From a bacterium (GTDB lineage Bacteria > Patescibacteriota > Microgenomatia > Curtissbacterales > GWA2-41-24), in NCBI GenBank assembly GCA_021813125.1, contig JAKALT010000004.1, forward strand, positions 7,941 through 71,940: a stretch of DNA of 64,000 nucleotides. The letters are read 5' to 3'. Below the pieces are notes generated by a model, which worked only from the letters and a program-made list of their open reading frames with translations, made no database searches and had not been told where the DNA came from. The position numbers and the translations under genes were made by a program. Shown here piece by piece: positions 5,549 through 46,591 of this stretch (the first letter of the stretch is position 1; each line of letters begins with the position of its first letter).

Positions 5549-5773
5549 AGTAATTTTTTCCACGCAAGTTTTTTGTTTTTAACCCTAAAGCCTGGCTTTT
5601 ACACAATTTTTTGAACTCCAATTTAAATTTGCGGCCTGTGAGTTGTCAACTTATCAACATTACTTTAACTATGACTGCGGTTTAAAGAACCTATTTAGTA
5701 AGTGTAGATTTGAAGCTTTTATCTGTATATAATAGAGGTGCTATAATCCCCAAGGTCTGCCCCATGCACAATT

Positions 5774-6913: not shown

Positions 6914-6924
6914 AATAGAGTTGT

Positions 6925-8218: not shown

Positions 8219-8847
8219 GGTGCACTAGTTATTGTTATACCGCATGGGTCTGGATCGCAATATCTGGGAACAGAAACTGGAACATGCGGAGGGTCGCTTA
8301 TGGAATATGACCTATTTTGATACCTGTTAAATTGATAATGGGTGTGGGCTCCTGTGCCCTCCGTTCCAGAAAGACCTATTTGTTGTCCGAACACTACAGT
8401 GTCGCCAACATTAACATTGGTTGCAGAAAGATGCCAATAATAAACTACGTCAAGGCCTGGGCAATTTGGGGTTACAGTTATACGTTGGTCAAAGTTATCG
8501 CCTTTATTTTTAAAATTTTCAGTTACAGTGCCAGAGACAGTTGCGTAAACGGGGGTTCCAATTGGTGTGCCGATATCTATAGCTTCAAGTTCACCGTTAC
8601 CTATGAGTACCGGGGGGTCGCCATGAGAAGTGTGACCCATTGGCCCTTGAGTTATGTAACCTGTTGTGGCCCAGCCTTGCGGGCAATTACTGCTAACCGT
8701 GCCAATTTGCACTACTGCCCTTGCCGTGCCTTGATAAGTTGTGGCGGAGGATTGAATTGGGAAAATTGCTGAAACTAAAAAGAAAAAGGCGAGAAAGAGC
8801 TTTATTTTTAAGTTTGAGAGAACCTTAATCTTTAGTTTTTTTGTCAT
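8215..8847 (-). CDS. Peptidase M23 (LytM-type) family protein
   Basis: Signal peptide present. The motifs GHTSHGD...D and GTGAHTHYQF fit the M23 HxxxD / HxH zinc-site pattern. It is translationally coupled within the putative T4SS-like operon. Confidence 0.65.
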   Translation of the reverse strand: MTKKLKIKVLSNLKIKLFLAFFFLVSAIFPIQSSATTYQGTARAVVQIGTVSSNCPQGWATTGYITQGPMGHTSHGDPPVLIGNGELEAIDIGTPIGTPVYATVSGTVTENFKNKGDNFDQRITVTPNCPGLDVVYYWHLSATNVNVGDTVVFGQQIGLSGTEGTGAHTHYQFNRYQNRSYSISDPPHVPVSVPRYCDPDPCGITITSAP

Positions 8848-9428
8848 TGTTTTTCGAAAATGTATTTACCATTCTGCTTTACGACTTTAGGAAATTCTGC
8901 AGAAGGATTTAGCCAAGACTCGGCCGTTTTTTGGTTTTGAAAGTTGTCGGCCCAGATGATGTAGAGTGCGGACGGATTAACCCCGTTTGAGGTGAGAAAA
9001 TCGTAGAGAGAGCTTGCCGTATCCCGAAAATCCTGGACTGTTAGTGGAAATTTCGGGTCTTCTTTTAGGGTAGTAAAATCAATGCCAATTATCGCGACAT
9101 GAAGTTCGTAAAGATCGGGGGTTTTAACGAAGGCCAGGTAAGAAACTTTGGTGCCGGTTGAGGTTGTAATCGTTTGGTTGTGGGGCAGCTTAGGTTTTAT
9201 AAGGTCAAGGGCATTTTTGGACAGTTGTACTTCGGGGGCGGTTGTGTCGAGTTTACCGTTTGAAACAGGTTGTTGGCTCGATGGCGGAGGGGTATATCTT
9301 GGTTTTGCCCTACGGATCGCTTGTTGGGCAACTATTGCTATTGATAAGATGAGAATTACCAGGCCGGCCAACAAGAAAAACTTGTGGCGAATGAAGGTAT
9401 TTTGGATTTTGTTTAAAGAAAATGTCAT
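8844..9428 (-). CDS. Membrane-anchored hypothetical protein (T4SS-like operon)
   Basis: 194 aa with a single N-terminal TM and a 4-nt overlap with both neighbours. Confidence 0.4.
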   Translation of the reverse strand: MTFSLNKIQNTFIRHKFFLLAGLVILILSIAIVAQQAIRRAKPRYTPPPSSQQPVSNGKLDTTAPEVQLSKNALDLIKPKLPHNQTITTSTGTKVSYLAFVKTPDLYELHVAIIGIDFTTLKEDPKFPLTVQDFRDTASSLYDFLTSNGVNPSALYIIWADNFQNQKTAESWLNPSAEFPKVVKQNGKYIFEKQ

Positions 9429-11407: not shown

Positions 11408-11523
11408 GGGTTTCTATTTAAATATACTAGTATGCCTTACTCTAAAGCAAAGAGATTTTGGGTGCAGAGGATTTAAGAAGGATGAACGCTTGGGTTGGGG
11501 GTGCCGCTTGCGCAAGTTGGTGA

Positions 11524-11571
11524 AGGTCAGGCCTTTTTCCATGAGAGACCGATAGCTAAGGCCTGACCTTG
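11524..11571. repeat. Palindromic intergenic element, copy 1 (AAGGTCAGGCCTT - 22-nt loop - AAGGCCTGACCTT)
   Basis: Perfect 13-bp inverted repeat lying between the 660-aa gene and virB4. Confidence 0.7.
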
Positions 11572-11602: not shown

Positions 11603-13507
11603 TCACTGATTCAACGAAGTTGGGGGTGATTGGTTTCCGTCGGTGCCTTTAGTTGCTTGTTGGTTTGCGGCTGAGTCGCTTTCAAATTGCTTGACGATCT
11701 CTTCTTGCGTATGCTGTTCCATTTGTTTGAGCTCTTCGGGGTTTGTGGTTACAAGTGAATGCTCCTCTTCCGATGCCATGACACGGACTGCAACATGGTT
11801 GGGGCCGGCAAAGAATATACCTTCTCCAACGTCGGCCGCCAAAAGAAGGTGTCTTTCTCCTTCTGAAAGATAAAAAACTTCGGCAACTTTGTCGATTGCT
11901 GCAGGTGACTGTTTCAGCAAAATTTGAAATGATGAGTTGGTAACAATTGCTTTGCCGTAGTCTGTGCTTAGAAAGTCTTCGACGTCCTGAGAAATTGTAG
12001 TCAGACCAAGGTAGTATTTACGGGCTCGTTTGGCGATTGAATAAAGAAAGGTGGCGCTTTCGGGAAACTGCATCATATACCAAGCCTCGTCGACGACTAA
12101 GAGGCGTTTTCTGATGTCGTTTTTGATCCTGGTCCAGATGAAATCCAAAATAAGATACATGGCGATGGGTCTTAGCTCCTCCTCTAAACTTTTTACGGAA
12201 AAGACGGTGAAGGTGTTTCGGAGGTCGATATTCGACTGCTGGTTGAAGATGCCGATAAGTGAGCCTTTAACGAATTTTTCAATGCGGTCTGCAAGGCTTT
12301 TGGCCTCGACTTCTTCCATGCCGAGTAAAACTTTGTAAAGATCCTCCATAAGTGGCGGTTCGTTTTTCTGGGTTGATGGGTCGGGAGTTATCCCTTTTTG
12401 CCTGTAAGTGTCGACTAGGGCTTTATCCAAAACGGCATCTTCGGCAGGACTCATGTTACCCATGACGACTTTAAAAAATCCATGGAGGGAAAGAATTTTA
12501 AGGCCCAGTTCATTTTCGCCTTCTTCATAAACCCCGGAAAGGTCAAAGGGATTAATTTTAGCGGGAGAATCGAAGCTAAAGGTGATGTATTCGCCACCTA
12601 TAGCATTGCAGAGATTTTTATATTCTTCTTCCGGGTCAATGACGAGGACTTCTGTTCCAAACATCAGAGATCTTAGGGCTTCAAGTTTGACAAGGTACGA
12701 TTTCCCGGCACCGGATTTGGCAAAGATTACCGAATTGGCGTTTTCCTGGGTGAATCGGTCGAAAATGACCAGGGAGCCGTTGTGCTCGTTTATTCCATAC
12801 ATGATGCCGGTGTTGGATGTTAAAGATGAGGAAATAAACGGAAAAGTTGTGGCAAGAGATGTAGTGTCCATGTTACGGGTTATGTAGAGATGATCCGTTT
12901 GCTGGGGGAGAGTCGTTTTGAATGCATCTTCCATTTGTAATGTGGCGTGTTTGGGCACAAGAAGAAGGGCGCCCATGGTTGATTCAACCTGCTTGGTGAC
13001 CAAATCCAATTCTTCTTTAGAGTCAGCAGGGATAGTGACATAAAGACCGAATTGAAAGAATCGTTCCTGGCCTTTGACCAGCTCTTCCTGCAGGAGCTGG
13101 GCGTCTTCCAGGGCTGCCTGGACGGCCGGGTCGAGAACTTTGCCATGCTGGATGTCCGATGCTATTGTTGCCTCCATTTCGGTGACTTTGCGCTTAAGAT
13201 CGTCCAGAACTCCTTTGGCTTCAACGGGATATTGATACATGGAAATTTCCAGAGTGTGAACAAAGTTGATTAACGGTGAGAGCCAATTAGCCTGGACGTA
13301 TCTGGGATAACCAACGACAAAAAGGGTTCGAAAGTAGGTTGAGCCTATTTTAATGTAGTCGAAATCGACTTCGATTGCCGGCGGGGCAATAATGTCTTTA
13401 ACGGAGACAACGCCTTTTGAAAGAGTTTGCGACCATTGCTTTTCCTTGTCGCTCAAAAGCTCTTGAGGATTTTTGGCTTTGGGTTTTAGGATGTTGACTA
13501 AATTCAT
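11603..13507 (-). CDS. virB4: Type IV secretion VirB4/TraC/PrgJ-family ATPase
   Basis: 634 aa. The N-terminus IAPPAIEVDFDYIKIGSTYFRTLFVVGYPRYV is typical of Gram-positive VirB4 homologues. Walker A is IFAKSGAGKSYLVK and Walker B is RLLVVDEAWYMM. Confidence 0.8.
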   Translation of the reverse strand: MNLVNILKPKAKNPQELLSDKEKQWSQTLSKGVVSVKDIIAPPAIEVDFDYIKIGSTYFRTLFVVGYPRYVQANWLSPLINFVHTLEISMYQYPVEAKGVLDDLKRKVTEMEATIASDIQHGKVLDPAVQAALEDAQLLQEELVKGQERFFQFGLYVTIPADSKEELDLVTKQVESTMGALLLVPKHATLQMEDAFKTTLPQQTDHLYITRNMDTTSLATTFPFISSSLTSNTGIMYGINEHNGSLVIFDRFTQENANSVIFAKSGAGKSYLVKLEALRSLMFGTEVLVIDPEEEYKNLCNAIGGEYITFSFDSPAKINPFDLSGVYEEGENELGLKILSLHGFFKVVMGNMSPAEDAVLDKALVDTYRQKGITPDPSTQKNEPPLMEDLYKVLLGMEEVEAKSLADRIEKFVKGSLIGIFNQQSNIDLRNTFTVFSVKSLEEELRPIAMYLILDFIWTRIKNDIRKRLLVVDEAWYMMQFPESATFLYSIAKRARKYYLGLTTISQDVEDFLSTDYGKAIVTNSSFQILLKQSPAAIDKVAEVFYLSEGERHLLLAADVGEGIFFAGPNHVAVRVMASEEEHSLVTTNPEELKQMEQHTQEEIVKQFESDSAANQQATKGTDGNQSPPTSLNQ

Positions 13508-14397
13508 TGTTGTGGCGGGTTTTGGTTTGGATTAAGTTGTTGCTCTCCGCGAATAGACTGGGCAGCTTTGGCGGTTGCCGTCTTAAGGTTTTCCAAAGCC
13601 TCCATTTGGGAAGGTGCAGGTGCCCGTTGGTTAATGTTTGGAAGGGAATCTGCGTAACCCGGTTGCGGTATCGGCTGGGAGGGTTCCTGGGTATAGGTTG
13701 GTTGCGGTTGAACCGGCGCTGGAGTTGGTACTTCCACCGCCGGTTCAACCATTGGTGTTGTGTAAGATGCTGAATCCAGAATTACCCTTTGAGTGCCTGT
13801 TGGCGCAGGATTATAGATGTCATAGAAGAGTTCAATTAGATCTTTTGTGGTTAGCTGCTTGGTTGTGAGACCAAGGCGGGCCGTCTGTTTTATTAAATGT
13901 TCCCGTTTTGGGGCAAGGGCAACTTTGGCGTCTTGGACCAGCTGTTCTTTATTGTTTGTTTTTACCGGTTTTTTGATGCCAGTTAAGCCAAGCTCGATTG
14001 GAGAAAAGCTGAGGACAAGATAAAAGCGTTTATCCAAAATGGTTTTTTGCTGAACGGTGGACTGGATAAAATCCATGTATTTTTGAATTTGACGCTTAAG
14101 GTCGGGATTCTGCTGGTTTCTTTCTGCTTCAACTAGATGTTGGTAATAGGCAGTGATGTCGGCTCTTTTGGATCGTATCAGAATTTGGATTGGAAACGTC
14201 AGCGAGTTTAAAAGGGCGCCATAAGCATAGATTGTGGCATCTTGTTCAGCTTCCGAGAGAATGTCGAAATTGACTGCAGTTGTTGCAAGGACCATGGCAA
14301 CCCAGCCTGTTTTTAAGATAACGAAGTCTTCGGTTATGTCTTCGATATCCAGATGTTCCTGGGTCGAAGCCTTAATTTTTTGGGCAGCTTGAGCCAT
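13504..14397 (-). CDS. Hypothetical T4SS-associated protein with a Pro/Gln-rich C-terminus
   Basis: 297 aa, translationally coupled upstream of virB4. It has no clear TM segment and ends in a low-complexity P/Q-rich tail. Confidence 0.4.
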   Translation of the reverse strand: MAQAAQKIKASTQEHLDIEDITEDFVILKTGWVAMVLATTAVNFDILSEAEQDATIYAYGALLNSLTFPIQILIRSKRADITAYYQHLVEAERNQQNPDLKRQIQKYMDFIQSTVQQKTILDKRFYLVLSFSPIELGLTGIKKPVKTNNKEQLVQDAKVALAPKREHLIKQTARLGLTTKQLTTKDLIELFYDIYNPAPTGTQRVILDSASYTTPMVEPAVEVPTPAPVQPQPTYTQEPSQPIPQPGYADSLPNINQRAPAPSQMEALENLKTATAKAAQSIRGEQQLNPNQNPPQQ

Positions 14398-15948
14398 TTA
14401 ATTTATCCTTTCTCCCCTGACTCCAATCGGGGCAAGCACTTGACCTGTTAGGTGAAGAGAAACCGGCTTAAAGGATGCAATGTCGCTTTCGGCTTCGATT
14501 GTGTAAGTGCCGCTAGACAAAGGGGTTGCAGAAAGAAACTGGCCAAGCTTGTTGGTTTTCAGGGCCCTTACCGGTATGCCGCTTTCGTCGCGGACCACCA
14601 GAACTGCTCCTTCGATCGGACTGCCTTTATCGTCGGTTACCAGGCCGGAAAGGACATTGGGTTTGTCGGTTAAGGGAATAATTTGAGCCTGCTGGACGCT
14701 CGGTGCAGCCTGAGTTTGTTGGTCTTTATCGGATATTGAAAACTGCGAAAATTCCCGTTTTTGCTGTTTTGGTTTTTCCTCCGTTTTCGGTGCGAGTTTA
14801 GCTGGATGCTGATCTGAATATTGGGTAGTTTCTTGCTTTGGCAGCTGTTTTGGTTGGACTTGAGGCTCAGTTGTTATTTGCGGCGCTGCTTGGACTTTTT
14901 CTTCCTGAATAGGCAGGACAACGGTTGGTGAGTTGTCTTCGAAATGGTATCTCTTTTTGAGCTCGTCGGAGATGTCAAATTTGCGCTCGCCGCGAATTGG
15001 AAGTTTGGAAAGGTCAAAATTGACAGGAGGTGCAAAGTGAAGTTTTCTGACTCTGGTATTACCCACTCCGTGAACAAGTCGAAATTGACCCTCGGAAATT
15101 TTGATAGGTATAACATTATCGAGTGAATAGTTGGTTTCCGATGCCAGATGAGCACTTGGCCTTGCCAGGTCAATTATTTCCTGAGGTTTGTGGTCCAGGC
15201 GCTTTTCGATGCCGGACAAGGTGAATTGTTTAGCTTGTGGCTGTATTTTTGCCCGAGTGAGGGCAGCGGGAGTCTTTTGGGAGATTATTTGTGGTCTCGG
15301 TTCGGGTTCCAAAACCGGAGCCGTTTGGCCTTGGGGAATTTCCTGAAGCGGACCGGAAACTTGCGGAAGTGACCCCAAAAGATAGCCGGACTCTCCTTGG
15401 CCGATCGCTACATATTTATCCTCCCAGGGACTTATCGGCCAAAGAATTGCAGGAGGTAGGTTACCTTCATACTGGCCGGCTGGGAAGCCAAGCCTGTCTA
15501 GTGCCAGTTGTTCTTTAATATCTAAGGAGGTGACGTTTTCTTTTGGAAGAGAACGTAGGTAGGCAATCATTCTTTCCCTGCCTTTTTCTGTTATTTCCTG
15601 GGGAATTTTAGCCTCTTTTTGGGGAGGTTTGGTGACCACGCTCAAAAAGCCCGGAATCCTTTTTTCTTTGATCCAAATCCTTTGGGTAGGGGCTGAGACC
15701 GCTTTGATAAAGGCAAAGATCCATTTATCAAAAGGCCTTCCACCGACAGGTACAAGAGCAATAAAAGCCCCGACGATGCCAATTGTTGCGGCCAAAGGCA
15801 AACGCAAAAGGGTTGGCAGGCCGGAAAAATAAACGAGTACGGCAATTGAAAGAGGGAATATTAAAGTTATAAACTGCCGTGCAGTGAGGTTGCCGAACAG
15901 TTTAAATTCAAAAGCCGCAATATGTTGCGGGACAGGATGCTGCTCCAT
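14398..15948 (-). CDS. PrgI/VirB3-like membrane protein fused to a long C-terminal extension with a carboxypeptidase-regulatory-like beta domain
   Basis: The N-terminal roughly 100 aa (AAFEFKLFGNLTARQFITLIFPLSIAVLVY...) match the PrgI-family pattern of two TM helices. The C-terminus SGLVTDDKGSPIEGAVLVVRDESGIPVRALKTNKLGQF resembles a CarboxypepD_reg-type fold. Confidence 0.5.
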   Translation of the reverse strand: MEQHPVPQHIAAFEFKLFGNLTARQFITLIFPLSIAVLVYFSGLPTLLRLPLAATIGIVGAFIALVPVGGRPFDKWIFAFIKAVSAPTQRIWIKEKRIPGFLSVVTKPPQKEAKIPQEITEKGRERMIAYLRSLPKENVTSLDIKEQLALDRLGFPAGQYEGNLPPAILWPISPWEDKYVAIGQGESGYLLGSLPQVSGPLQEIPQGQTAPVLEPEPRPQIISQKTPAALTRAKIQPQAKQFTLSGIEKRLDHKPQEIIDLARPSAHLASETNYSLDNVIPIKISEGQFRLVHGVGNTRVRKLHFAPPVNFDLSKLPIRGERKFDISDELKKRYHFEDNSPTVVLPIQEEKVQAAPQITTEPQVQPKQLPKQETTQYSDQHPAKLAPKTEEKPKQQKREFSQFSISDKDQQTQAAPSVQQAQIIPLTDKPNVLSGLVTDDKGSPIEGAVLVVRDESGIPVRALKTNKLGQFLSATPLSSGTYTIEAESDIASFKPVSLHLTGQVLAPIGVRGERIN

Positions 15949-16155: not shown

Positions 16156-16203
16156 AAGGTCAGGCCTTTTTCTTGCAAGAGGCGTTGGTTAAGGCCAGAC
16201 TTT
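16156..16203. repeat. Palindromic intergenic element, copy 2
   Basis: AAGGTCAGGCCTT...AAGGCCAGACTTT (two mismatches), lying between the PrgI-fusion gene and the AAA-wHTH gene. Confidence 0.6.
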
Positions 16204-16219: not shown

Positions 16220-17476
16220 TTACGGTTCAAATTTAAGGCCTCGGCCTTTTACGGTCTGGATGTGTACAGGCTTGGCGGGTTCGTCTTCGATTTTCTTTCT
16301 AAGCCTGAAGACCATTTGATCTATTGCCTCATCACTTATTGCTTCCGAAGACTGGGTTTGTGGCCAGACGGCCTTTATGATCTGGTCCCGGTCGAGAACT
16401 TTTTTGGGATTTTCAATTAGAAACTTGAGCAGGCGATATTCCTGAGGAGAAAGAAGTTCGGAGATTATACTTTCCCCCTTTTTAATTTCGTTGGTTTGGG
16501 CGTCAAAAACAATCTTAGTTTGGAGATTTAATTTGGTTGTCTTTATAAATTCCTCAAAGATGGGGATAGTGATTTTATTTTGGTATGAAATTAGATCTAA
16601 ATTGATTAGAGTTTCGTCTATCTGGCTTGGAGTTTTACCCTGGGTAATTGTTAAAAGAGTTTGCTGTTCGACGCCGGTTAGAAATAGCCAAATTTCGTAT
16701 AAAGCCGCTTGTATTTGGTGATTTTTTAAAAGTTGGTTGGTTGTTGGGTCAACATTTTGGCCAAGAATAAGATCTGCTGCGATTTTGGTAAGTTTAGCAT
16801 GGCCACCTGTTATTTTGGTGATTTTGGACTTTTCGTCTTCCTTAAGCTTTTTGGAAAAAACTGCCTCAATTTGGGCAAAAAGATGGTTCAGGGCTGATTT
16901 CTCAAAGATTTTTAGGTAAATGGTATTGCCGATAAAAAAGTCCCAGTACTCTTTGAGGATTTCTTCATCAACCAGACCTGACAGATCTCTTCTGGTTGCA
17001 AAAACCACCGAGAATTTGTATTTAGCGATATTTTTGAGGTTTTTTAAGGTTTGGAAAAAAAACCTGGGAAGTTGGTTTTGGAACTCGTCAAAATGGTCAA
17101 GCAGAAAGATTAAGGTTTGACCCAAATCAGATAATTTATTGACTTCCTCTGAGAGCTGCTTAGTTAAAATTAATTGATCGTCGAGGCTTTTGGGGTCTTG
17201 GTCCATGGCAACTATAAGAAACCTCAAGATTTGAGTGTCGGTTAATTCTGAGAGTTCGAGCAGATTTAGGTATACAAAACGCAGGTTTTTTTCTTTTTCG
17301 CCGAGATGAAACCTCAAAAGGCTACGGTTGTGGGCCAGAAGCCTAAGGATTGTGGCCTTGCCGGCACCGGGAATGCAGATTAGCTGGCAAAATTTGCCGG
17401 TTGTAACGCAGTCTAGAACGGACTTGATTTCTGTTTTTCTAAAATCGTCAGGAAAAGCAGACTCAAAAATTTTCAC
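16220..17476 (-). CDS. AAA+ P-loop ATPase with a C-terminal OmpR/PhoB-type winged-helix DNA-binding domain; putative regulator
   Basis: Walker A is ICIPGAGKATILRLL. The C-terminal region EYRLLKFLIENPKKVLDRDQIIKAVW...QMVFRLRKKIE...IQTVKGRGLKF matches the trans_reg_C pattern. Confidence 0.55.
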   Translation of the reverse strand: MKIFESAFPDDFRKTEIKSVLDCVTTGKFCQLICIPGAGKATILRLLAHNRSLLRFHLGEKEKNLRFVYLNLLELSELTDTQILRFLIVAMDQDPKSLDDQLILTKQLSEEVNKLSDLGQTLIFLLDHFDEFQNQLPRFFFQTLKNLKNIAKYKFSVVFATRRDLSGLVDEEILKEYWDFFIGNTIYLKIFEKSALNHLFAQIEAVFSKKLKEDEKSKITKITGGHAKLTKIAADLILGQNVDPTTNQLLKNHQIQAALYEIWLFLTGVEQQTLLTITQGKTPSQIDETLINLDLISYQNKITIPIFEEFIKTTKLNLQTKIVFDAQTNEIKKGESIISELLSPQEYRLLKFLIENPKKVLDRDQIIKAVWPQTQSSEAISDEAIDQMVFRLRKKIEDEPAKPVHIQTVKGRGLKFEP

Positions 17477-17556
17477 TTAGTAATTATACCGCTGTTAGCT
17501 TCCTGTTAGCCAAATATCAAGCACAAACGTCTCTAGTTGGTTAATCTACGTGCAAC

Positions 17557-20500
17557 ATGGCTGAGCGAATTGTTGCATATGATGGCCAAAACGGCTACGC
17601 TCAAGATAGAGGTTTATTTAGTATGCCAGGCAAAGAGCCAGGTGAAACTCCGCGTCCAGAAATAACTCCACCAATAAAGCAGCCAAGAGGAGAAGCGCCG
17701 CAATTACTGGGTGGAGGTTTGGTGGATGAGCTTAGGAAAATTCAGGAACAATTAGGCAGACCTGAAGACAGGGCCGAAAAGCCTGAGGCTGACGAAGGAA
17801 GCCAAGCACGTAAAAGGTACAGGAGGCGAGGCCTGGAGCCTCGAGTGCCCAATGCTCCAGCTTCCGAGCCAACGATTGTGCCTACTGCCAAGGACCCCGT
17901 AATCATTCCCAGCTTTCCACATTTCGAGAACTGCTCTTCTGAACAGATTAAGGCAACGCTTGAAAGGCACGGTGTTAAAGTAGATGTTCCTTCGGAAGAA
18001 GAGTGGCGAAAAATGAATAAGCTTGAAAAAGCCAGGTGGGCTGAAAGCCATCACATTATCAACGTGACGGCAATTCCAGACGAAGTCACTGTTGCAAAAT
18101 CAACAAAGGGCGGCATTATTATAAGCGGCTTGAGGGAAGATTCCGCTGTGAACTCGCGTTATTTGGAAGAAGTTATTAAACAGTCGGGCCTGGAATTTGA
18201 TGTCGAGTTTCCGAAGGGATTTGATGAGAAGAGCTACAAGGATAAGCTTCGTTGGTGTAAAGACCATGGCTTAAAAATTGGCCCTGCCATTGCTGGCGCC
18301 GAGGTTGTGGGTACAGCTGTCCCGGTGCCTCCGCCCGCAATGTATGACGATAACGACAAGGTCGATGTAGCGACCGCGTACAGAAGGCTTGGAAAAATAA
18401 GAGATTCGGCCGAGCGGCTTGGTGTTACCCCTAATGTAACCGATATAGATCAGCTTCAAAGCAGAATAAGAAGTATTGATGCGCAAAGGAGGATTGCAGA
18501 ACTTGGTTCCAAGGAAGAAATCGAAAATAGATTAATCGAGCTTCAGCATATTGAAGCCAGATTTGGGCCAGTCGATTTTAAGGTAAAAGGTTTTGATGAA
18601 GAACAGAAGCTTCTTTACGAGATGATGAGAGTTTCAATTAACAAAGACGGCAGAATAAACGATGTTTTAGAAACGCTCCGAAACCTTGAAATCCAAATAG
18701 ATAAGGGAGAAATTTCAGCAGACGATCCCGAATACCGTGTCTGGAGAGGATATCTTAACCATATTTTGGGTCATGTTAGAACGAGCGAGGGGATCAAGAG
18801 AAATTTTCGTTTCGTTTTTAATGCATCAAAGGCGATTGATGACTTTGCAAAAGTCAATCATGATGGAGGAACTGATGTCCTCTTGAATAGGGTTATTTCA
18901 AAAAAAGAAAGAGATGATGTCCGTGATGCAACAGATAGTATTGACGCACACTTTCAAGGGAAAGAAGCTGCGTACAAGAATCCGGGGAAGAGGGATGCGT
19001 TAAGAACTCTTTACGAAGAGGTCGACACAGCAGCTACATCTTACAGAAGTTCTATTACATACGGTAGTTTGACTGGGATGAAAGACGTCGAAACGAGATT
19101 GTTCGACGTAGAAGGGGCGCCTGTTTACGAAGCGGCCAAAAATGAGCAAGCCGGCGAAAAAGGTTTAGTCGAATGGCATGCTGTTAAGACGCTTGAGGAG
19201 ATGAACATCCAGCAGATTGGTCAAAACGAAATGGATGTACCCTTGGATTGGCATGATTCAAAACGTAACGTGGACAATAACTTAAGGTATGCCGAATCCG
19301 GCGACTTCTCGGAACAAGACCTTAGGGCAATTCAGGATAGAATCAGCAAAATCCAATCTTCGTTGGCTCAGCGTGTTAATCAGATGAAGGGTGAAAGCGA
19401 AGCTGAAAAGGAAGAAAGAGGAAATGCGGAAGATATGCTTTCTGACATTAATGACCTTAAAGACGCTGTTTTGGCAATATACGATTTGAGGCTTGCGATG
19501 GAGGGTAAGGATATGAATCCTGAGGAGGTTGTGCAGCATTTTGGGAGCCACATTTGGAAGGACACCACTTTCCAGACGTATTTCAAGCGGTTTGCTAAAG
19601 ATGAAAATAACCAAGCTTTCAGGGACGGGAAAGGAGAATTCAATATTCAAGACAGGGCAATGCAAGTACTTTTCAAACAACTAGCACAAGAGAGGCGAGA
19701 TTTGAACCTACTGGAGGCTATGACTATAGTCGATATTACAACTGAGTTTAAACCTGGCGATGCAAGGTACGCTGAGATGGCGAGAATCATGGGTAGGGGC
19801 AATAGAACTAATGCATTTTCGCCGGACGAGGTGAAAAAAATAGAAGAGTTAAGAAAAGCAATGTATAGAGGTATGGAGAAACACCATTACAATCCAGGTG
19901 ATTGGGGTCAGGGCAATAGCAGCGAGATGTTGCAGGAAACGGGCCAAATGAAGGATGTTATTAATGACTGGTACAGAAATAACACATTTCTTGGAGCTTA
20001 CGGGACTTATGAAGGGGACGACCCTAAATATCAAGGGAAACAAAATATCGATTTTTTTAGAGGCAAGTTACTAGATGATTTTGAAGCCCGGCTTGTTGCT
20101 GATGGTGTAGATAAGGGTTCTATAGCAGAATACAAAAATTCGGGTCTTTTGAATCAGGTTGTTAACAATGCTTATCACCTCTCTTTTAGTTTGGGTGCTT
20201 TTTCTGACTATGACGGAATCCGTGTCTGGGACAGGAAAGCTGTTTGGTTTACAAACGAACAGCGCGGAGAAGTTTATAGGTTAGGTTCATACGTCTTTAA
20301 CAACGGTTCCAGCTGGTTCCATGGCCGAATGGTAGACCATTATACAGAATTTTTACAGGACGAATTTCGAGGTAGGCCGAGGGATGCCAATTTTGAGTTC
20401 ACAAAAAATATGATTGGTAAGAACAGATCAGTTTTAGGGCATAACCGTCTTCTTTCCAAAATAATACTGGACAATTTAAGCCAGGGATCAGTTGATCCAA

Positions 20501-21249
20501 CCGTTAAAGATAATTTGGTTGCTGGGCATAGCGAAACAGGTGTGTCTTACGATGGTCTACTTAAGGACAAAATGAAAAACATTGAGAATGGAAAGAGGCT
20601 GGATATAGAGGATAAAGACGACAAGTCATGGTTAAGAGGAGCTTCTGTCGAAGAGCTTATGCAAGACGGTGAGTTGACTTTGGAGGAAGTAAAGTGGAGT
20701 GAAATATTCAGCCATAATGATAAAGTTGTTAAGAAATTTAACATGGGCGATTGGTGGGGAGACCGGGCGGCAGCGCACAAATATTTTAATACAGAGGCTA
20801 TGCAGCAATACTTGAAGACACCTAACACCGATTTATTTTTCAAAATGAATGAAAGTATTTTCTATTCGAAGCGGGAAATTAGAATTCAGCCCTGGATGAA
20901 GCTTGTTATACCTGCCCACCAGGATTTGGGGCGGCATTGGCAGGAATGGTGGAAGCTTCCTTATGACATGCCGCACCGCGAAATAGAGAGAGTGATTGAC
21001 AAGGCCGCTAGACTCAATATGATTCGATATGCTTATGTTAGCAACATGAGGGGTCAATACTTAGGTTGGGGGCCGTTCAGCGGTAATGATTTTTTTGGTC
21101 TGGCTATGAAGGCTAGGTTTATCGCAGAGGCTGCGGATCGAGGTGCCCGGGAAACAGGTAAAGACAGTTGGCAGATGCCATTTGGATGGGGTTATGAGAT
21201 TTTCAGACTAGCTATGCAGCAGTCACAAGCCCAGCTAGCGGGCAAATAA
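17557..21249 (+). CDS. Large (1230 aa) acidic hydrophilic hypothetical protein
   Basis: Long uninterrupted ORF with no TM segments, no P-loop and a high D/E/K/R content. It is flanked by the palindromic elements. Confidence 0.5.
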   Translation: MAERIVAYDGQNGYAQDRGLFSMPGKEPGETPRPEITPPIKQPRGEAPQLLGGGLVDELRKIQEQLGRPEDRAEKPEADEGSQARKRYRRRGLEPRVPNAPASEPTIVPTAKDPVIIPSFPHFENCSSEQIKATLERHGVKVDVPSEEEWRKMNKLEKARWAESHHIINVTAIPDEVTVAKSTKGGIIISGLREDSAVNSRYLEEVIKQSGLEFDVEFPKGFDEKSYKDKLRWCKDHGLKIGPAIAGAEVVGTAVPVPPPAMYDDNDKVDVATAYRRLGKIRDSAERLGVTPNVTDIDQLQSRIRSIDAQRRIAELGSKEEIENRLIELQHIEARFGPVDFKVKGFDEEQKLLYEMMRVSINKDGRINDVLETLRNLEIQIDKGEISADDPEYRVWRGYLNHILGHVRTSEGIKRNFRFVFNASKAIDDFAKVNHDGGTDVLLNRVISKKERDDVRDATDSIDAHFQGKEAAYKNPGKRDALRTLYEEVDTAATSYRSSITYGSLTGMKDVETRLFDVEGAPVYEAAKNEQAGEKGLVEWHAVKTLEEMNIQQIGQNEMDVPLDWHDSKRNVDNNLRYAESGDFSEQDLRAIQDRISKIQSSLAQRVNQMKGESEAEKEERGNAEDMLSDINDLKDAVLAIYDLRLAMEGKDMNPEEVVQHFGSHIWKDTTFQTYFKRFAKDENNQAFRDGKGEFNIQDRAMQVLFKQLAQERRDLNLLEAMTIVDITTEFKPGDARYAEMARIMGRGNRTNAFSPDEVKKIEELRKAMYRGMEKHHYNPGDWGQGNSSEMLQETGQMKDVINDWYRNNTFLGAYGTYEGDDPKYQGKQNIDFFRGKLLDDFEARLVADGVDKGSIAEYKNSGLLNQVVNNAYHLSFSLGAFSDYDGIRVWDRKAVWFTNEQRGEVYRLGSYVFNNGSSWFHGRMVDHYTEFLQDEFRGRPRDANFEFTKNMIGKNRSVLGHNRLLSKIILDNLSQGSVDPTVKDNLVAGHSETGVSYDGLLKDKMKNIENGKRLDIEDKDDKSWLRGASVEELMQDGELTLEEVKWSEIFSHNDKVVKKFNMGDWWGDRAAAHKYFNTEAMQQYLKTPNTDLFFKMNESIFYSKREIRIQPWMKLVIPAHQDLGRHWQEWWKLPYDMPHREIERVIDKAARLNMIRYAYVSNMRGQYLGWGPFSGNDFFGLAMKARFIAEAADRGARETGKDSWQMPFGWGYEIFRLAMQQSQAQLAGK

Positions 21250-21265: not shown

Positions 21266-23707
21266 TTAGGTTGGATTAGTTTCTTCTTGACCAGGCTGAT
21301 TGCCGCGTGGTCTAGCGAAAGCATCACTTATCCTCTTCGCTTGAGTCTTTTGTTGTTGCCTTTGCATAGCCCATCTTGCCGGGTATGCGGCGGCTGTTGC
21401 ACCGGCACCTAATGCTCCACCGATTGCTGCACCGGCGTTGAGGCCGCCCGGGCCGCCTTTGGCACCCATGGCGTTTTTAACCATTTCGGCGGCTGAGGGG
21501 GTGATAAGTAAGAAACCGATGCCGATTAATTTTGGTATTTCGCCCATACCGCCGGTTAGAAGCGGGAACTGGCCAACCTGCTCCGGGGTGATGATACCTT
21601 GTCCTTGGCCGCCGAGCGCTGAAATCCCGCCTATTATTCCGGCAAGCATGAACATCAGGGCAGTTACCGGAAAGACGGCGACATTGGAAGCCATTTGTTT
21701 AAACCATTCTTTGGCACCGTTATTGCCCGGTAGGGCTTGGATAAGGAAAAAGAAAGGGGCGAATATGGTCAGAATAATGATCATGACGTAGGCCATAAGA
21801 AGCATTAAAAAGACCCTGAACATAATATACAGTATAGTGGCGCCAACGACAAGTCCTGCAATAGTGCCACCGGTCCAGCCAATTGTCTTTTCTGCAAGAT
21901 CTCCGAGGATACCTCCAGGTAATTTTAATGATCCTTCTATGACACCGTCTATTGCTTTGGCCACAGTAAAAACAACTTGCTTCCATGTATCACCCCAAAG
22001 AAGTCCGAAGACATTATGCTGAAATATAAAATCACCTGTTGTTAGAAGCCCGGTTGCGACAAGAGCGCTTATCATAATATTTAAAAACAGGAACATCAGA
22101 TCGATCATGAAGCCGGCAATGGCATAGCTGAATGTGACCAAAATAAGGGCGACGACAATTCTGGGAATAGAATCCTGGACTGTGGCAACTGCTTGGGGTG
22201 AAATGTGGGCCCTGAACATGATCATAAAGCCCATGATAACGAAGACTAGGATGAATCCGATGTAGGAAATATTGCGGAAAGCGACCCAGATTTTTTGGAC
22301 CGGCCCGAGTGCCTGGTAGCCAATACCGCCTGGGTTGTTTCCTCCGGCACCGGCAAACGCGGGTTGGACCGGGTCAAGGTCATGGATTTTTTGGGCAAAA
22401 TATGTCACCCCGGAAGCAGGCGGTGCGGCGTAAAGTGATGCTACCATGCGGCCGGACAGGGCAAGAGCCCCTTTGCCGTTTATTGATGAGATTTTGTTTA
22501 AGTGCTGGTTTTTGCTAGAGCATCCAAAGAAGCTGAAGTACAGGAAGTCGAAAGTGTCGCCCCCCTGGTTATAAGTAAAGATGTTGCTGTCATAATAACC
22601 GTTTTGAATCGCGTCGTTGTTGACTGTGTCCAGCCAGGGGTTTTTCACTATTGGGCAATTTGAGGCACCTGCAACTGTGCTTGGAATCGTGAAATGGACA
22701 ACTGTTGAAACTGCGTTGAATATAGCAAAAACGGCGGCACAATATGATCCGTTTGGAAGCGACCATGACCAATTAGTTGTTGGAGATCCGACGGCGCCTA
22801 GAGCGCCACTATCTTTAACTACCGTTCCCGTGGTGTCGTCTTCTATGATGATACCGGCATTACCTGTTGCACCCACACCGGATGGGTCGGAAAAGGCGAA
22901 GGTAACAGTGTTCCCGCTAACATTGTCGGCGATTTTCCAGTCCGTGTTGGCTGGTGTGATATTGCAGCCAGTGCCAGGGGTTGGTGTTGGAGTTGGGCCG
23001 GCGGGGCCGACGTTTAAGATGTTGCTTGAAAGTCCTGGAATTACACATTGAGTCGGTGGGCTAGTGGAATTATCCTGGACAAAGACCGTATAATTTCCGC
23101 CGCTTGCAGGGGCGGTGAATGTTAAACTTGCAGCAGGGATATTACCACTTTGAGTAGCGGGATTTGATAAAACAGTACCCGAACTATCTTTTAAACCTGC
23201 TGTAAAAGGATTTCCGCTAACACCATTTATATTTTGTATGAAGAATTGTCCACTTGGCGCTACCGATGTAGGAGTGAACGTAAAGGCACACAATGGTGCA
23301 CCACTTACAGGAACTGTAAAAATTACTTCGTTAGAAACCAATGTCAAACCGACTACTATTGAAACCTTAAATCTACCGTCAGGAGGGTGAACTGCGATAT
23401 TCCAATCCGTTGTAGAAACAGTTAATTGGGTTTTACCCAGGAGAGATACACCATGTGCGGCACTGTCGTACACAGATGGGTGTGTGGGGTCGTCCCAATC
23501 AACGATTATCAAAACTGCGGCTGATGTGCCAGGATTGTCCCATTTAATGGTTACGTTGTTTCCTGACCAGGTTGGAGGATCAACTATATTGAAAAATGCG
23601 GCATTGGAAGGTTTAGTGGCAAAGCCCGATACAAGGAAAATAAAAGCGACGACGAAAAAGGATAGTAAGTATTTAGAAAACCACGGCAGTTTTAAATTGG
23701 GCTTCAT
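21266..23707 (-). CDS. Putative VirB6/TrbL-like T4SS channel protein with an N-terminal secreted beta-rich ectodomain
   Basis: 813 aa. A signal peptide is followed by about 450 aa of T/S/G-rich Ig-like region, then at least six TM helices and a Gly/Ala-rich C-terminal tail. The architecture resembles extended VirB6 homologues. Confidence 0.45.
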   Translation of the reverse strand: MKPNLKLPWFSKYLLSFFVVAFIFLVSGFATKPSNAAFFNIVDPPTWSGNNVTIKWDNPGTSAAVLIIVDWDDPTHPSVYDSAAHGVSLLGKTQLTVSTTDWNIAVHPPDGRFKVSIVVGLTLVSNEVIFTVPVSGAPLCAFTFTPTSVAPSGQFFIQNINGVSGNPFTAGLKDSSGTVLSNPATQSGNIPAASLTFTAPASGGNYTVFVQDNSTSPPTQCVIPGLSSNILNVGPAGPTPTPTPGTGCNITPANTDWKIADNVSGNTVTFAFSDPSGVGATGNAGIIIEDDTTGTVVKDSGALGAVGSPTTNWSWSLPNGSYCAAVFAIFNAVSTVVHFTIPSTVAGASNCPIVKNPWLDTVNNDAIQNGYYDSNIFTYNQGGDTFDFLYFSFFGCSSKNQHLNKISSINGKGALALSGRMVASLYAAPPASGVTYFAQKIHDLDPVQPAFAGAGGNNPGGIGYQALGPVQKIWVAFRNISYIGFILVFVIMGFMIMFRAHISPQAVATVQDSIPRIVVALILVTFSYAIAGFMIDLMFLFLNIMISALVATGLLTTGDFIFQHNVFGLLWGDTWKQVVFTVAKAIDGVIEGSLKLPGGILGDLAEKTIGWTGGTIAGLVVGATILYIMFRVFLMLLMAYVMIIILTIFAPFFFLIQALPGNNGAKEWFKQMASNVAVFPVTALMFMLAGIIGGISALGGQGQGIITPEQVGQFPLLTGGMGEIPKLIGIGFLLITPSAAEMVKNAMGAKGGPGGLNAGAAIGGALGAGATAAAYPARWAMQRQQQKTQAKRISDAFARPRGNQPGQEETNPT

Positions 23708-23823: not shown

Positions 23824-23871
23824 AAGGTCAGGCCTTTTTCCAAGTCATGGCTTAGGATAAGGCCTGACCTT
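23824..23871. repeat. Palindromic intergenic element, copy 3
   Basis: AAGGTCAGGCCTT...AAGGCCTGACCTT, perfect, lying upstream of the VirB6-like gene. Confidence 0.7.
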
Positions 23872-25370: not shown

Positions 25371-25416
25371 AAGGTCAGGCCTTTGTCAAGATCAACCAAA
25401 GTTAAGGCTTGACCTT
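25371..25416. repeat. Palindromic intergenic element, copy 4, in terminator-like position between convergent genes
   Basis: AAGGTCAGGCCTT...AAGGCTTGACCTT, lying between the 423-aa gene and the metzincin gene 3' ends. Confidence 0.6.
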
Positions 25417-25435: not shown

Positions 25436-28400
25436 TCAGGTTGATTTATTGCTGGAGAAGATTACCAGGCCTGTCCCGCAATTTGGGGCACAAACTGTTT
25501 CTTGGTAAGTTGTTGAAGGTTGGAGGCCGGTGAAGGTTGCTTGAGGCAGTGTTGAGTTGTCGTTTATAGTCTGAGTCTTGCAAAGACTTCCTGCCGCACT
25601 GCAGCTTGAAAAAGAAGCAGGGTAAACAACGGCAACGTATGACCAACCCCAAGACATCGAGGCGCTGCCGTCCGCATTGGCTCTTGTACCGCCCGATTTT
25701 ATAATGGGCCCAGTTCCGTCTGTCACTCTCACCTCAAAGATGAGTGATGAGCCAGGCCAAAAGATAAACTTCGGAGTTGAACAGGAAAGACTAGTACTTC
25801 TGCAGTCGGAAGTTTTTTTGTTTACATCAACGAAACCGGCGTAACCCCATGGTCTTCCCCAGCTGAGGTTGAGGCTTGTATTCGGAGGGGTTGGTGTAGG
25901 GGTAGGCGTTGCCTTTGGGGTAGGTGTTGGTGTGGGCTTCGGGGTTGGAGTGGGTGTGGCTTCAGGAGGCAAAGTTGGAAGCGGTGTCGGTGTAGGTGTC
26001 GGACCGGGTGTCGGGGGTGGCGTGGGTGACGTTGTCGGATTTGGTGTCATGGTTGGTTTTGGGATACAGCTGGTATCGATATTTTGATAATGCTGCAGAA
26101 CAAGAGGTTTTAAGGCCATGTCACGGACGAACATTTTGAAACAGTCGGTTGAGCCGATTAAGGGCTGTTTACCTTCGCCAGTTGTATCGCCGAGAACGTT
26201 TGAAGTTGACACACCTAAGGAGGCGCCGCCTACCTGGCCAGGGAGTTTTTTGGTGAGGCCGGAGATAATCGATTCAGCCATTAATGATGCACATGTTTTA
26301 AGGGCGGGAAGGTTCAGTAAATTATCCTCTACACATTTCTTGATCTGTGGAAAGTTGTCAGATTCCGGCAGGTTAGCCCAGTTGAGTAAGCCGCTGCAAT
26401 CTCCAGCTTTGCATTGATCCAGTAAATCTTGGAGATGTGCAGCAAGAGGGTCTTGCTGGCCTTGATTAGCGCTTTGTAAGACAAGATTGGGTGTAAAAAA
26501 CGCGTAAACACCCGGCCGGCCGGTTTTTTGAATTGAATTTGGCCCATCAATATTCTCTGCAGTGTCCGAGGCAAGGGTGTGATTCCAGATTTCACCGATC
26601 CAGGGAATCCTAAACACCGGCCAGACACTGACTGTTGCCGTACAGGTTTCTATTCCTGCTGTTATTGCACAACTATCCCACTGGCCGTTGCCGGAGGTTG
26701 GCAAATCCATTTGTTTGGAAAAGGTAAATGTAATGTTGCAGACGACGTTGGTGTTTTGGGGATCCAGCTGATTTGGGTCGTTGGCGTTTGGTTGGCTGCA
26801 GGTGCCCGCAGGAAGTTGGCCCGCCGGAACTGCACAATAGGGGGCCGTCCCGGAGCGGCCGTTTCCGAGCACTTTTACGCATGTAGGATCAGAAGCAGCG
26901 TAGGCATTTTTGATCGGGTGGATGTTTTCGATTTGCAGGTAGCTGACGACCTTTTTTAAGGCTTTGGTTAGCGGGTTTTGGGAGGCCAGGAAAACGCATC
27001 TTTTGATGATTTTAGCGAGTACGTTTTGGGTGCCTTGAGTTGAGGCTTGAAGGATCAGGTTGTTTTGGGTAGACTGCGCGATTTTAGGGGCAAGCATCAT
27101 ATTGGTTATGCCGGTTGTGGCAGCAGCGCGGAAAGTGTCGGGCATAATGAAGGTAATTGGCGGTCTGGAGTCAAATGGCACTGGGCATGTTCCTCCATTT
27201 TTAATTTGCGTTATCATGTCGCTTCCAACACCTACTTTAAATTCCAGTTTTCCCTCGTAGTATTCGTTGTAGGCTGTTGGAATTTTTACCCAATAAGGCC
27301 CCCATGTTGACTGGAAATTAGCTGAATCTGGGTTTGGGGCCCCCCATTTTTGGACCATGTCATAGATTGTATGAGGGTTCAGGCCGTTAACATCGGTTAT
27401 GATACTTGTCGATTCGGCCAAAGTAGGCTTGTTGTAAACGTAGTTGACGTATTTGACTCTCAACTGGTTGGTCAAGACTTTTGAGCCCGCTTTTTGATTG
27501 GGGCCAAAAAAGTTGTCACGGTCTTCGGTTGTTACTGAGGTTAAAGGAGCTTGTTGGTGGTTTGGGTCCTGATAACGGCCTTCTGTGTAATTTGAATTAT
27601 TGTCGGCAAAAATTGCCTGCAGTTTGGACATGTCGAGGGTGAAGGTGAATTGTTTATTTGGAGGGTCTGTAACAGCTGTAACGGTTGAGCCGGGAGCGCC
27701 GGTACCTTTGATGGTAAATGTGAAGTTAGGGTCTTGAGGGTTGCCCTTGTCGTCTGTAATGTAATGGTCTGTCAGGTTATCGGTTTGAACTGCGTTACTG
27801 CAAGCTTCGGGTTTAGGTGGTGGGGGAGGCGTGGGGGTAGGATTAGGCGTTGGTGTGGGAGGTGTGCTAGAAAGTGTGATTCTAACCGCATTGGAAATTT
27901 GGGCTGTGAAGTAGGTTAAGGCTGCACAGAAAGTTCCGTTATAACCATTCCATATTTGCGAGTTGCCGCTTACATGGATATTCCCGCCGGTAGCCGGCAG
28001 TCCGGTATTAGCATCAATTATATTTAAATAAACTTCTTGAGATGAGAGTATTGGGAGGCTTAAAGAGCCGTTTTCAAAGGTGAAATTAGCGTTTGTGCCA
28101 CTTATTGATGGTGGATCTTTGAGCTTATACTGACCTGTGTTTATTTGGTTACACTCACCGGGAGGTGGCGGACCACCGATAGTGAAATTTGGTGTTTTTG
28201 CAAGGACAGAAAAGCCGTAAACCAACCCTCCGCAGTATGTACCTGGCGGCGCACTGTTCCAAATTGTTGTGTTTGGCGAGCCGATGGGTAGCGGACCTGA
28301 GTCGAAGGCGGGTGGCACGGTGAAGTCACAGTTGGGTGCTGCCCAAACCCCGAAGTTACCATTGGGAGGTGTATGGGAAAAGGTAACAGTGTTGCCGCTA

Positions 28401-36000: not shown

Positions 36001-36045
36001 AAGGTCAGGCCTTTGCTAAGGATCGCCCAAGTTAAGCCTGACCTT
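36001..36045. repeat. Palindromic intergenic element, copy 5
   Basis: AAGGTCAGGCCTT...AAGCCTGACCTT, lying inside the pilin-module array between the 309-aa and 454-aa genes. Confidence 0.6.
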
Positions 36046-46531: not shown

Positions 46532-46591
46532 CAGCTCTGCTTTAATTATACAGTTGAAGGCTTGATGTCGATCGAGGGACTTTGTTGAGTG

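Follow-up and report, generated by a model that had tools for sequence, protein, structure and literature searches.

A 64,000-nucleotide stretch of a Curtissbacterales genome (contig JAKALT010000004.1; hereafter the window) contains, at positions 17557 to 21249 of its forward strand, the coding sequence of a soluble 1230-residue protein that founds an uncharacterised family in Curtissbacteria and lies beside the genes of a type IV secretion system (T4SS). Our analysis points, at a probability of about 0.4, to a lineage-specific accessory or docking subunit of the T4SS, placed on the cytoplasmic side close to the membrane. An accessory subunit is favoured because the gene occurs as a single copy at a fixed position, is occasionally arranged in one operon with VirB4, specifies a core that is invariant in both deep types of the family, and ends in transmembrane (TM)-like tails in one third of the members. 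The argument starts from direct observations, namely the open reading frame (ORF), the family and its synteny, the structure model, the pattern of divergence, the properties of the tail and the conservation of the promoter.

From these we infer a tethering to the membrane, an interaction with the T4SS, a regulation by the neighbouring gene and a role as a platform. A globular, acidic, all-helical body of ~830 residues would be tethered to the cytoplasmic membrane on its inner side by a basic patch and a C-terminal hydrophobic or amphipathic helix. The body would work together with the polytopic membrane protein encoded in the VirB6 position and with PrgI, TrsD and VirB4 as an accessory or docking platform, and may have taken over substrate reception or gating, because such systems usually lack a coupling protein encoded near virB4. 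Transcription would proceed from a promoter in which a direct repeat with 11-bp spacing replaces the -35 region, and the adjacent NTPase/winged-helix regulator would most probably activate it. The variable N-terminal part (leader, linker and alpha/beta modules) and the deep allelic types could adapt the platform to variable partners.

The Open Reading Frame and Its Product

The ORF runs uninterrupted from ATG to TAA, is present in one copy in the window and specifies a product of 140.8 kDa. A contig of the metagenome-assembled genome GCA_027346405.1 and an independent Logan assembly of SRR13300764 both encode an identical protein, and the three closest homologs, of 1238, 1229 and 1228 residues, align with it from end to end. 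The ORF is genuine and intact rather than a fusion produced by sequencing errors, because it is identical in two assemblies and has full-length, collinear homologs. An artefact, whether smaller genes joined by sequencing or assembly errors (a possibility that the original prediction had itself named) or a non-coding ORF, has virtually no chance of being the explanation: the two independent assemblies, the collinear homologs and a structure model that is confident along the whole chain together rule it out.

The product had been described from the sequence as an acidic, highly charged, hydrophilic protein with helical regions, devoid of TM segments, nucleotide-binding motifs or indeed any detectable motif, and most of this description holds. 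The protein is hydrophilic, with a grand average of hydropathy (GRAVY) of -0.75; its top 19-residue hydropathy window reaches 1.28, far under the level of a TM helix, and hydropathy and segment analysis identified neither TM-like segments nor a signal peptide. A motif scan retrieved no Walker A ([AG]xxxxGK[ST]), Walker-B-like, HExxH, CxxC or LPXTG motif. Charged residues do make up 31% of the chain (D+E 204, K+R 177; net charge -27), but with an isoelectric point of 5.63 the acidity is only mild. Likewise, known motifs are absent, but the family has invariant residues and motifs of its own. A self-BLAST gave no significant internal repeats; two alpha/beta modules are nonetheless visibly related in the alignment.

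A Conserved Position beside the T4SS Module

The window is chromosomal and lies near the replication origin, with dnaA (4190-5548) and dnaN (5774-6913) about 12 kb from the T4SS locus. The core module of this locus (11603-15948, reverse strand), recognised with Pfam and NCBIfam, comprises three genes: PrgI (14398-15948), VirB3-like over residues 5-91 and prolonged by a long C-terminal extension with a CarboxypepD_reg-like domain; a TrsD/VirB4-N-like gene (13504-14397); and a VirB4 ATPase of the CD1110 family (11603-13507; NCBIfam, 1.9e-114). VirB4 is thus split into a TrsD-like N-terminal gene and an ATPase gene, which overlap by 4 nt. On the other side, the gene of interest runs tail to tail into a convergent gene (21266-23707, reverse strand) for an 813-residue polytopic membrane protein, in which TM-like segment analysis marks about 8-10 hydrophobic segments. 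Pfam and NCBIfam scans of the window's T4SS locus detected neither a relaxase nor a type IV coupling protein (T4CP).

The gene was originally placed between a T4SS operon and a VirB6-like gene. The operon upstream is real, but a regulator gene (16220-17476) intervenes. The downstream gene is indeed polytopic, but neither the 813-residue protein nor a 15-sequence profile built from it matched VirB6 or TrbL in Pfam or the Protein Data Bank (PDB); it can be called VirB6-like by topology and position only.

We compared 80 VirB4-anchored genome loci (numbered L). VirB4 relatives in species-representative genomes are 63-93% identical to the VirB4 of the window. Their records are labelled Candidatus Curtissbacteria, Microgenomates or Patescibacteria, or carry evidently wrong, automatically assigned names; L007, L013-L030 and others are filed as uncultured Gammaproteobacteria, Pseudomonadales, Clostridia, Nevskiaceae, Limisphaerales or Bathyarchaeia and are apparently mislabelled.

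A hidden Markov model (HMM) of the family identified a member in eight Curtissbacteria-type loci (L003, L004, L005, L006, L010, L011, L012 and L013; E 1.7e-119 to 0). In all eight the family gene converges on a counterpart of the 813-residue gene, ending 0-30 nt from it or overlapping it, and adjoins PrgI-TrsD-VirB4. Compared with the window, L004 and L083/L084 have an inverted VirB4 module (L083/L084 contain the family member P0038 at the same position); in these loci the family gene follows VirB4 on the same strand after 77-170 nt and still converges with the membrane gene. Family HMM, invariant core and convergent position beside PrgI-TrsD-VirB4 define the family, and all three are found in its founding sequence, the 1230-residue protein. 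We tie the protein to the T4SS because the linkage survives inversion of the VirB4 module. With the position beside PrgI-TrsD-VirB4 and the membrane gene kept in every Curtissbacteria-type locus examined, the functional link to the T4SS that had been suspected from the window alone is well supported by synteny.

More distant Microgenomates, with the one exception of L045, have in this slot a large ORF for a soluble protein of 690-1170 residues, likewise tail to tail with the membrane gene and without a Pfam match. Profile-profile comparison (hhalign) of the family with these slot proteins gave best E-values of 0.0025-0.0095 at probabilities of 4-12%. The two best matches align C-terminus to C-terminus, the best of them pairing the invariant FYSKRE.R with YFSKTPEDR, and the top three matches among 65 other large-ORF clusters in the 80 loci are all slot proteins. 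It is possible, judging from these profiles, that they are remote orthologs of the family. In L045 the slot upstream of the PrgI-like gene holds, on the opposite strand (5019-7346, reverse), a VirD4-like coupling protein with TrwB_AAD_bind, TraG-D_C and DUF87 matches.

The invariant tail-to-tail pairing with a polytopic gene suggests a variant of the accessory-subunit model, in which the protein corresponds to the hydrophilic helical domain of an "extended VirB6" in detached form (e.g., SEML1_0011 and SEML1_0013), one unit having been split over a convergent gene pair. Extended VirB6 proteins are described in a T4SS review (PMC12857230), and the VirB6-like proteins of Southlakia epibionticum, which are essential, contain both TM regions and ARM-like helical portions (PMC10633639). 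In line with a split, the Curtissbacteria partner is conserved essentially in its TM region only, and its homologs measure about 510-610 residues. We consider such a split improbable nonetheless: the 65 clusters, which include polytopic proteins of 950-1600 residues, showed no relation to the family in the profile-profile comparison, the best E of 0.0025 belonging to soluble slot proteins; a fused form was not found among the loci compared; and the two genes are convergent rather than co-transcribed. The likeness of the protein to SEML1_0011 and SEML1_0013 lies in their large size (about 1000 residues), location beside PrgI and ARM-like helical, essential character, and in the pairing of our protein with a gene in the VirB6 position. 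It differs in having no TM segment and in showing no sequence relation to the extended polytopic proteins of related loci. An identity as VirB6, TrbL or PrgH itself was rejected, since these have five or more TM helices and the protein has no TM-like segment.

A Family without Named Relatives

Searches of the 1230-residue protein against Pfam, NCBIfam and PADLOC returned no match, and PHROGs returned a single sub-threshold one (E 0.0088 over 34 residues). A sequence search of the PDB, with the single sequence and with a profile, reached a best E of 0.079 and yielded spurious helical matches only. A Pfam scan of all 36 aligned members assigned no family, and the relaxase HMMs of Pfam and NCBIfam matched neither the protein nor any of these 36. 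Two candidate identities were discarded on these grounds: a conjugative relaxase, in view of the unmatched relaxase HMMs and the absence of a PDB match for the profile, and an anti-phage defence or phage protein, in view of the empty PADLOC and insignificant PHROGs results.

A word-index search of 5.8 billion clusters retrieved only the protein itself, and the 36-sequence alignment or the C-terminal core alignment as input brought up no more than the query or three hypothetical proteins from Curtissbacteria; such an index does not work for this family. An exhaustive HMMER search of 1.84 billion representatives returned 65 proteins at E <=1e-3, 34 of them at E <=1e-30, mostly 1000-1400 residues long, the best being 48-49% identical to the query. 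The ten clusters that were looked up are all singletons at 90% identity, are unnamed or called "hypothetical protein," and carry, where a source name is present, that of Ca. Curtissbacteria. By the measure of these profile searches, the protein belongs to a "dark" family and is not an orphan.

Variable regions had been proposed as a feature worth looking for, and they are present: the N-terminal ~400 residues are variable and rich in indels, and the median identity between loci is 29%. Residues ~400-1230 (18754-21246) form the family core. In the 36-sequence alignment this core contains 18 invariant residues, mostly polar or charged (E580, F679, N696, N717, W805, G813, D927, E936, R938, G939, G954, D1065, D1069, R1070, Q1083, Y1103, S1104 and R1106), and its motifs include WSDYDGIR, DE.RGR, LPQNR and FYS.RE.R..PWMKL.

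A Predicted All-Helical Body

An AlphaFold2 (AF2) model was computed for residues 31-1230 from an alignment of 56 sequences. Its mean predicted local distance difference test (pLDDT) score is 86.5 and its predicted template modelling (pTM) score 0.72, with 811 residues at a pLDDT of at least 90; values fall below 50 at model residues 1-27 and 35-74, and lie between 58 and 82 in the last 60 residues. According to the model, the chain is disordered up to residue ~105 and continues with two alpha/beta modules, a short disordered linker and an all-alpha body of ~960 residues; the family core corresponds to a large body of all-alpha bundles, into which two beta-hairpins are inserted.

The predicted helical content was borne out, 62% of the model being helix, distributed over 60 helices with a median length of 10 and a maximum of 36 residues. 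The alternative proposal of a coiled-coil or tape-measure-like component found no support, as long uninterrupted rod helices are absent from the model and the helices pack as bundles. The protein is modelled as a compact multi-bundle body and not as a coiled-coil rod. The structure prediction and remote homology search suggested for this ORF thus gave a confident model but no known relatives in sequence or fold. The best Foldseek match of the model in the PDB had an E of 0.014 and a TM-score of at most 0.11, and all matches were generic HEAT/ARM solenoids. T4SS effectors appeared among the listed fold matches only as non-specific three-helix-bundle matches to Legionella SdeC and Lem22.

The N-terminal part is built of three elements. 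Residues 1-24 (17557-17628) constitute a peptide with the pattern M.E..VA.......Y.E.(R/K)G....MP(E/D), recognised from the N-termini of the family and an alignment of the leaders. Over this short stretch the window and L003 are 58% identical, and the rest of the two proteins is barely alignable. Other family members, as well as slot proteins outside the family (L015, L017, L030, L039 and L026), begin at or near the MP(E/D). An alternative start at Met23 (17623), preceded by an AGAGG Shine-Dalgarno-like sequence, is possible; between a real peptide and a 5' untranslated region whose Shine-Dalgarno sequence is read as codons, the amino-acid conservation in L011 favours the peptide, which could serve as a docking or secretion signal. 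It is followed by a Pro/Glu/Arg-rich linker (residues 25-107; 17629-17877), disordered by pLDDT and composition, and by two tandem alpha/beta modules of ~60 residues each (residues ~115-170 and ~178-243; 17899-18285). The modules share the signature G(V/I).V.(V/I)P..W.......R..W and vary in number within the family, some homologs having three.

What if the gene merely sits near the T4SS? A cytoplasmic protein unrelated to secretion, such as a scaffold or a factor for the nucleoid or for division that drifts under weak constraint, would be consistent with the distance of about 12 kb from dnaA and dnaN, with the absence of detectable homology to T4SS parts in Pfam, NCBIfam and the PDB, and with the fast evolution of the gene, which could reflect weak constraint. 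We give this little credence. The adjacency to T4SS genes outlasts inversion of the VirB4 module; a confident fold obtained from only 56 sequences and 18 invariant residues at ~25% identity speak for constraint; and positional equivalents with a like charge and tail design exist in other Microgenomates T4SS loci.

A Basic C-Terminal Tail with a Hydrophobic or Amphipathic Helix

The C-terminal tail was analysed in 57 full-length family members by charge and by Kyte-Doolittle hydropathy over 17-residue windows (KD17). The body is net-negative in every one of them (median -29), and in 98% the final 50 residues have a net positive charge. The tail has a constant order: a basic patch, P(F/V)RR.RQ..E...(R/K)E..K, then a hydrophobic or amphipathic helix, and finally an ending of the form F(K/T)Q...Q(L).GK. 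The helical segment is TM-like (KD17 >=1.6) in 20 of the 57 members and reaches a KD17 of at least 1.0 in 31; in 30 it is the most hydrophobic 17-mer of the entire protein. In the remaining members, including the 1230-residue protein, it is strongly amphipathic and aromatic. In the latter the tail occupies residues ~1181-1230 (21097-21246), a region of lower pLDDT, and consists of the basic patch, the aromatic amphipathic helix WQMPFGWGYEIFRLAM and the ending QAQLAGK. An acidic body combined with a basic tail and a hydrophobic C-terminus also characterises the Microgenomates slot proteins of L015, L016, L030, L024, L026, L046 and L053.

As far as sequence properties can tell, this is the design of proteins fixed to the cytoplasmic face of a membrane by a tail anchor or an amphipathic helix; the basic C-terminus would also fit a T4SS substrate, and the tail does not decide between the two. 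The likeness to tail-anchored and amphipathic-helix proteins consists of a cytosolic body, a basic patch and one helix within the last ~40 residues. These proteins are a topological class and not a homologous family, and the helix of the 1230-residue protein is amphipathic, not clearly membrane-spanning.

Deeply Diverged Alleles at a Fixed Slot

Among 36 pairs of Curtissbacteria-type loci, median identity is 83% for the C-terminal VirB4 gene, 64% for TrsD, 51% for both PrgI and the polytopic partner, and 29% for the 1230-residue family. In the closest genome, L003, VirB4 is 95% identical to that of the window, PrgI 88%, DnaA 85% and DnaN 81%; the slot proteins are 23% identical (BLASTP E 4e-10 over 379 residues). 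Identity declines toward the slot from both sides, from VirB4 (95) through PrgI (88) and the regulator (69) to the slot protein (23), with the membrane partner at 62. L006 and L010 share 94% in VirB4 and 29% in the family protein, whereas L006 and L013, with only 81% in VirB4, have the highest identity of the family protein, 45%. At least two deep family types can be distinguished, one comprising the window, P0002-P0015, L010 and L012, the other L003, L006, L013, P0034 and P0038. From these comparisons, the slot looks like a site of allele replacement, or of long-term upkeep of deeply diverged alleles, rather than of clock-like drift.

Between the window and L003 the periphery of the apparatus as a whole is hypervariable: among the membrane or secreted proteins encoded downstream of VirB4 (7202-11407, reverse strand) a 660-residue protein is 59% identical, a 194-residue protein 42%, an M23 peptidase 41% and a 338-residue protein 25%, at 93-95% for VirB4 and 85% for DnaA.

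Could the protein be what the system translocates, as the original suggestion of a secreted effector implies? It would then be a cytoplasmic substrate, recognised through its basic C-terminal tail, its N-terminal peptide or both and passed into the host bacterium or onto its surface, there to act through the helical core, and the deep allelic types would result from diversifying selection exerted by the host. Much of the evolutionary evidence can be read in this way. Without a Sec signal, the gene is among the fastest-evolving of the locus and incongruent with its backbone, two deep types occupy one slot of near-identical backbones, and the clusters looked up are all singletons at 90% identity. 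The net-positive C-terminal 50 residues behind an acidic remainder recall the substrate signals of the Agrobacterium VirB/D4 system. The putative activator-type promoter of the gene itself, the variable N-terminal domain content and the novel fold, the last being common among effectors, also fit, and the literature allows that the T4SS may export proteins, without any known substrate. We regard an effector as the main rival of the accessory subunit and as somewhat less probable. One copy at one fixed position per locus, sometimes within the VirB4 operon, is what a component of the machine would show rather than a set of effectors; the TM-like C-terminal helices of 20 of the 57 members would tend to retain the protein in the membrane of the producer; the conserved core of 830 residues has invariant residues common to both deep types; and Pfam, NCBIfam and PADLOC revealed no toxin, enzyme or immunity-gene signatures nearby. 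As for the features of a substrate signal, the tail is net-positive in 98% of members, but it is predicted to be helical and hydrophobic or amphipathic, TM-like in those same 20.

One may go further and speculate that the family is the cargo of the Patescibacteria T4SS, a 140-kDa effector with an unseen fold that is delivered into the host bacterium through a pilus-bearing monoderm T4SS and whose alleles, swapping between near-identical backbones, determine or track host range; this bolder version we hold to be unlikely.

A Putatively Regulated Promoter

The 80-nt gap between the 1230-residue gene and the divergent regulator gene contains a promoter-like motif (17493-17521, forward strand), TGTTAGC-N4-TGTTAGC with an 11-bp period, followed by the -10-like TAAATATCAAG, at a distance of 36 nt from the ATG. 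Nowhere else in the window does the motif occur (chance expectation 0). L003, L006 and L010, the loci with an adjacent regulator gene, have it in front of their family genes as well, and a copy with three mismatches is present in L011, a locus outside the regulator check. The last 21 nt before the ATG are common to the window and L003 despite almost unalignable proteins.

The divergent gene (16220-17476, reverse strand) encodes 418 residues with an N-terminal AAA_22/NACHT-like NTPase and a C-terminal OmpR/PhoB winged helix, identified with Pfam and NCBIfam (Pfam Trans_reg_C 1.7e-20, AAA_22 7.7e-06). The architecture, an NTPase (NPHP3_N) joined to a winged helix without a receiver domain, is unusual. 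L003, L006 and L010 have kept this regulator gene next to their family gene, and L009 contains a homolog too. Members of the OmpR-type DNA-binding family typically bind direct repeats that overlap the -35 region. The TGTTAGC repeat is a candidate binding site of the adjacent winged-helix protein, and from the arrangement of the two genes a regulation of the 1230-residue gene by its 418-residue neighbour is a reasonable inference. The latter may act on the slot gene as a small sensor of the STAND type.

Weighing the Accessory-Subunit Model

Several observations weigh against an accessory subunit. The tail segment of the 1230-residue protein itself is amphipathic only and not TM-like. A subunit in contact with a VirB4 conserved at 83-95% would not, judging by these sequences, be expected to show 23-29% identity or incongruent alleles. 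The searches detected no homology to known T4SS components, and none to the hydrophilic portions of the extended polytopic proteins that related loci encode. The link between regulator and promoter is correlative, and L004, L005, L012 and L013 have neither the motif nor a detected adjacent regulator and show ordinary -10-type promoters instead.

How does an accessory subunit compare with known systems? Quinonero-Coronel et al. (PMC12102498) describe the Patescibacteria T4SS as MPF-FATA-like, with PrgI-TrsD-VirB4 and arrays of VirB2-like pilins, encoded in dnaA-proximal loci that lack a relaxase and rarely have a T4CP near virB4; VirB6 homologs are called "scarce" in Microgenomatia. The window shares with this system PrgI, the TrsD-like gene, the CD1110-type VirB4, an M23 peptidase, a PF18895 array and the proximity to dnaA and dnaN. 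The 1230-residue protein matches no T4SS profile in Pfam or NCBIfam, and the sections of PMC12102498 and PMC10633639 that were available contain no description of a component like it. The supplement of PMC10633639 lists large essential proteins with helical "ARM-like" hydrophilic regions beside PrgI in the S. epibionticum locus. The locus as such is known, then, and what is new, within the limits of those two partly accessible papers, is a component without a Pfam family.

With T4CPs (VirD4/TrwB/PcfC) the protein would have in common the state of a membrane-tethered T4SS protein at the cytoplasmic face, the tether being conjectural in our case, and in L045 a VirD4-like gene holds the slot. The tether differs, being C-terminal rather than an N-terminal TM pair, as does the fold, which is all-alpha rather than RecA-like. 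An identity as a T4CP was rejected: the protein lacks a P-loop, Walker A and B motifs and an N-terminal TM segment, and has no TrwB_AAD_bind, TraG-D_C or AAA match. Large helical effectors with orphan folds, of the Helicobacter pylori CagA type, resemble it in a length of ~1200 residues, mostly helical structure with disordered regions, encoding within a T4SS locus, rapid divergence and a narrow lineage. Substrates of the Agrobacterium VirB/D4 system have positively charged C-terminal signals, and the net-positive tail is the feature shared with VirE2 and VirF.

Further Features of the Locus

The locus also contains an M23 peptidase, a 1601-residue metalloprotease-like protein and a series of genes with the PF18895 T4SS-pilin domain. 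The 1601-residue protein (25436-30241, reverse strand) has one N-terminal TM-like segment and weak matches to reprolysin/M6/serralysin-type metalloproteases near residues 340-440; partial homologs occur in L015-L017, and a 1513-residue gene is located at the same position in L083. Two more small pilin genes lie just past it. Four consecutive proteins of 309-834 residues end in PF18895 (VirB2-like; 31423-32469, 32459-34963, 35017-35946 and 36068-37432, all on the reverse strand) and are far larger than ordinary pilins through long N-terminal extensions.

Five copies of a ~48-nt palindromic element (11523-11570, 16156-16203, 23824-23871, 25371-25416 and 36001-36045) are scattered over the T4SS region, all intergenic, in promoter, intercistronic and convergent-terminator contexts. 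Their arms, AAGGTCAGGCCTT(T) and AAGGCCTGACCTT, of 13-14 nt, are strictly conserved around a variable loop of ~20 nt, and the window contains 12 arm matches against about 2 expected. The hairpins have folding free energies (dG) of -20 to -32 kcal/mol and z-scores of -3 to -6.5, except for the degenerate copy at 16156. Copies of this element were originally said to flank the ORF on both sides; none is present in the 80-nt upstream gap, and the downstream gap measures just 16 nt. The nearest copies, at 16156-16203 and 23824-23871, instead bracket a block of three genes, the regulator, the 1230-residue gene and the membrane gene. The element is absent from the related loci, including that of the closest genome, L003; it behaves like a genome-specific repeat of the repetitive extragenic palindromic (REP) kind and not like a part of the 1230-residue gene.

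Farther away, at 46591-50435, four tRNA-Ser genes (tga, gct, cga and gga) and one tRNA-Arg gene are clustered within 4 kb, and the ORFs overlapping them (e.g., 48216-48761 and 49690-50448) are probably spurious.

Implications

What could this gene contribute to an understanding of the Patescibacteria T4SS? In S. epibionticum, the one species in which this has been tested, the system is essential for epibiotic growth, its function and substrates being unknown according to PMC10633639, PMC11665869 and PMC12857230, and reviews call the role of the Patescibacteria T4SS "completely unknown," with no recognisable substrate, coupling protein or relaxase. The 1230-residue gene offers a concrete handle: it is linked to the T4SS at a fixed position and has a confident structure without precedent, a tail that could be either a tether or a signal, and a putatively regulated promoter. 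The approach extends beyond this gene, in that exhaustive profile searches, taken together with synteny, can sort the Pfam-negative hypothetical genes of such loci into families. The restriction of the family to an uncultivated lineage tempers its interest. The replacement of alleles at a fixed slot is an evolutionary pattern typical of host-interaction genes. Whether the protein proves to be a docking platform in place of a coupling protein or the cargo itself, it would supply a missing component of a secretion system that is found in a very large share of bacterial diversity.

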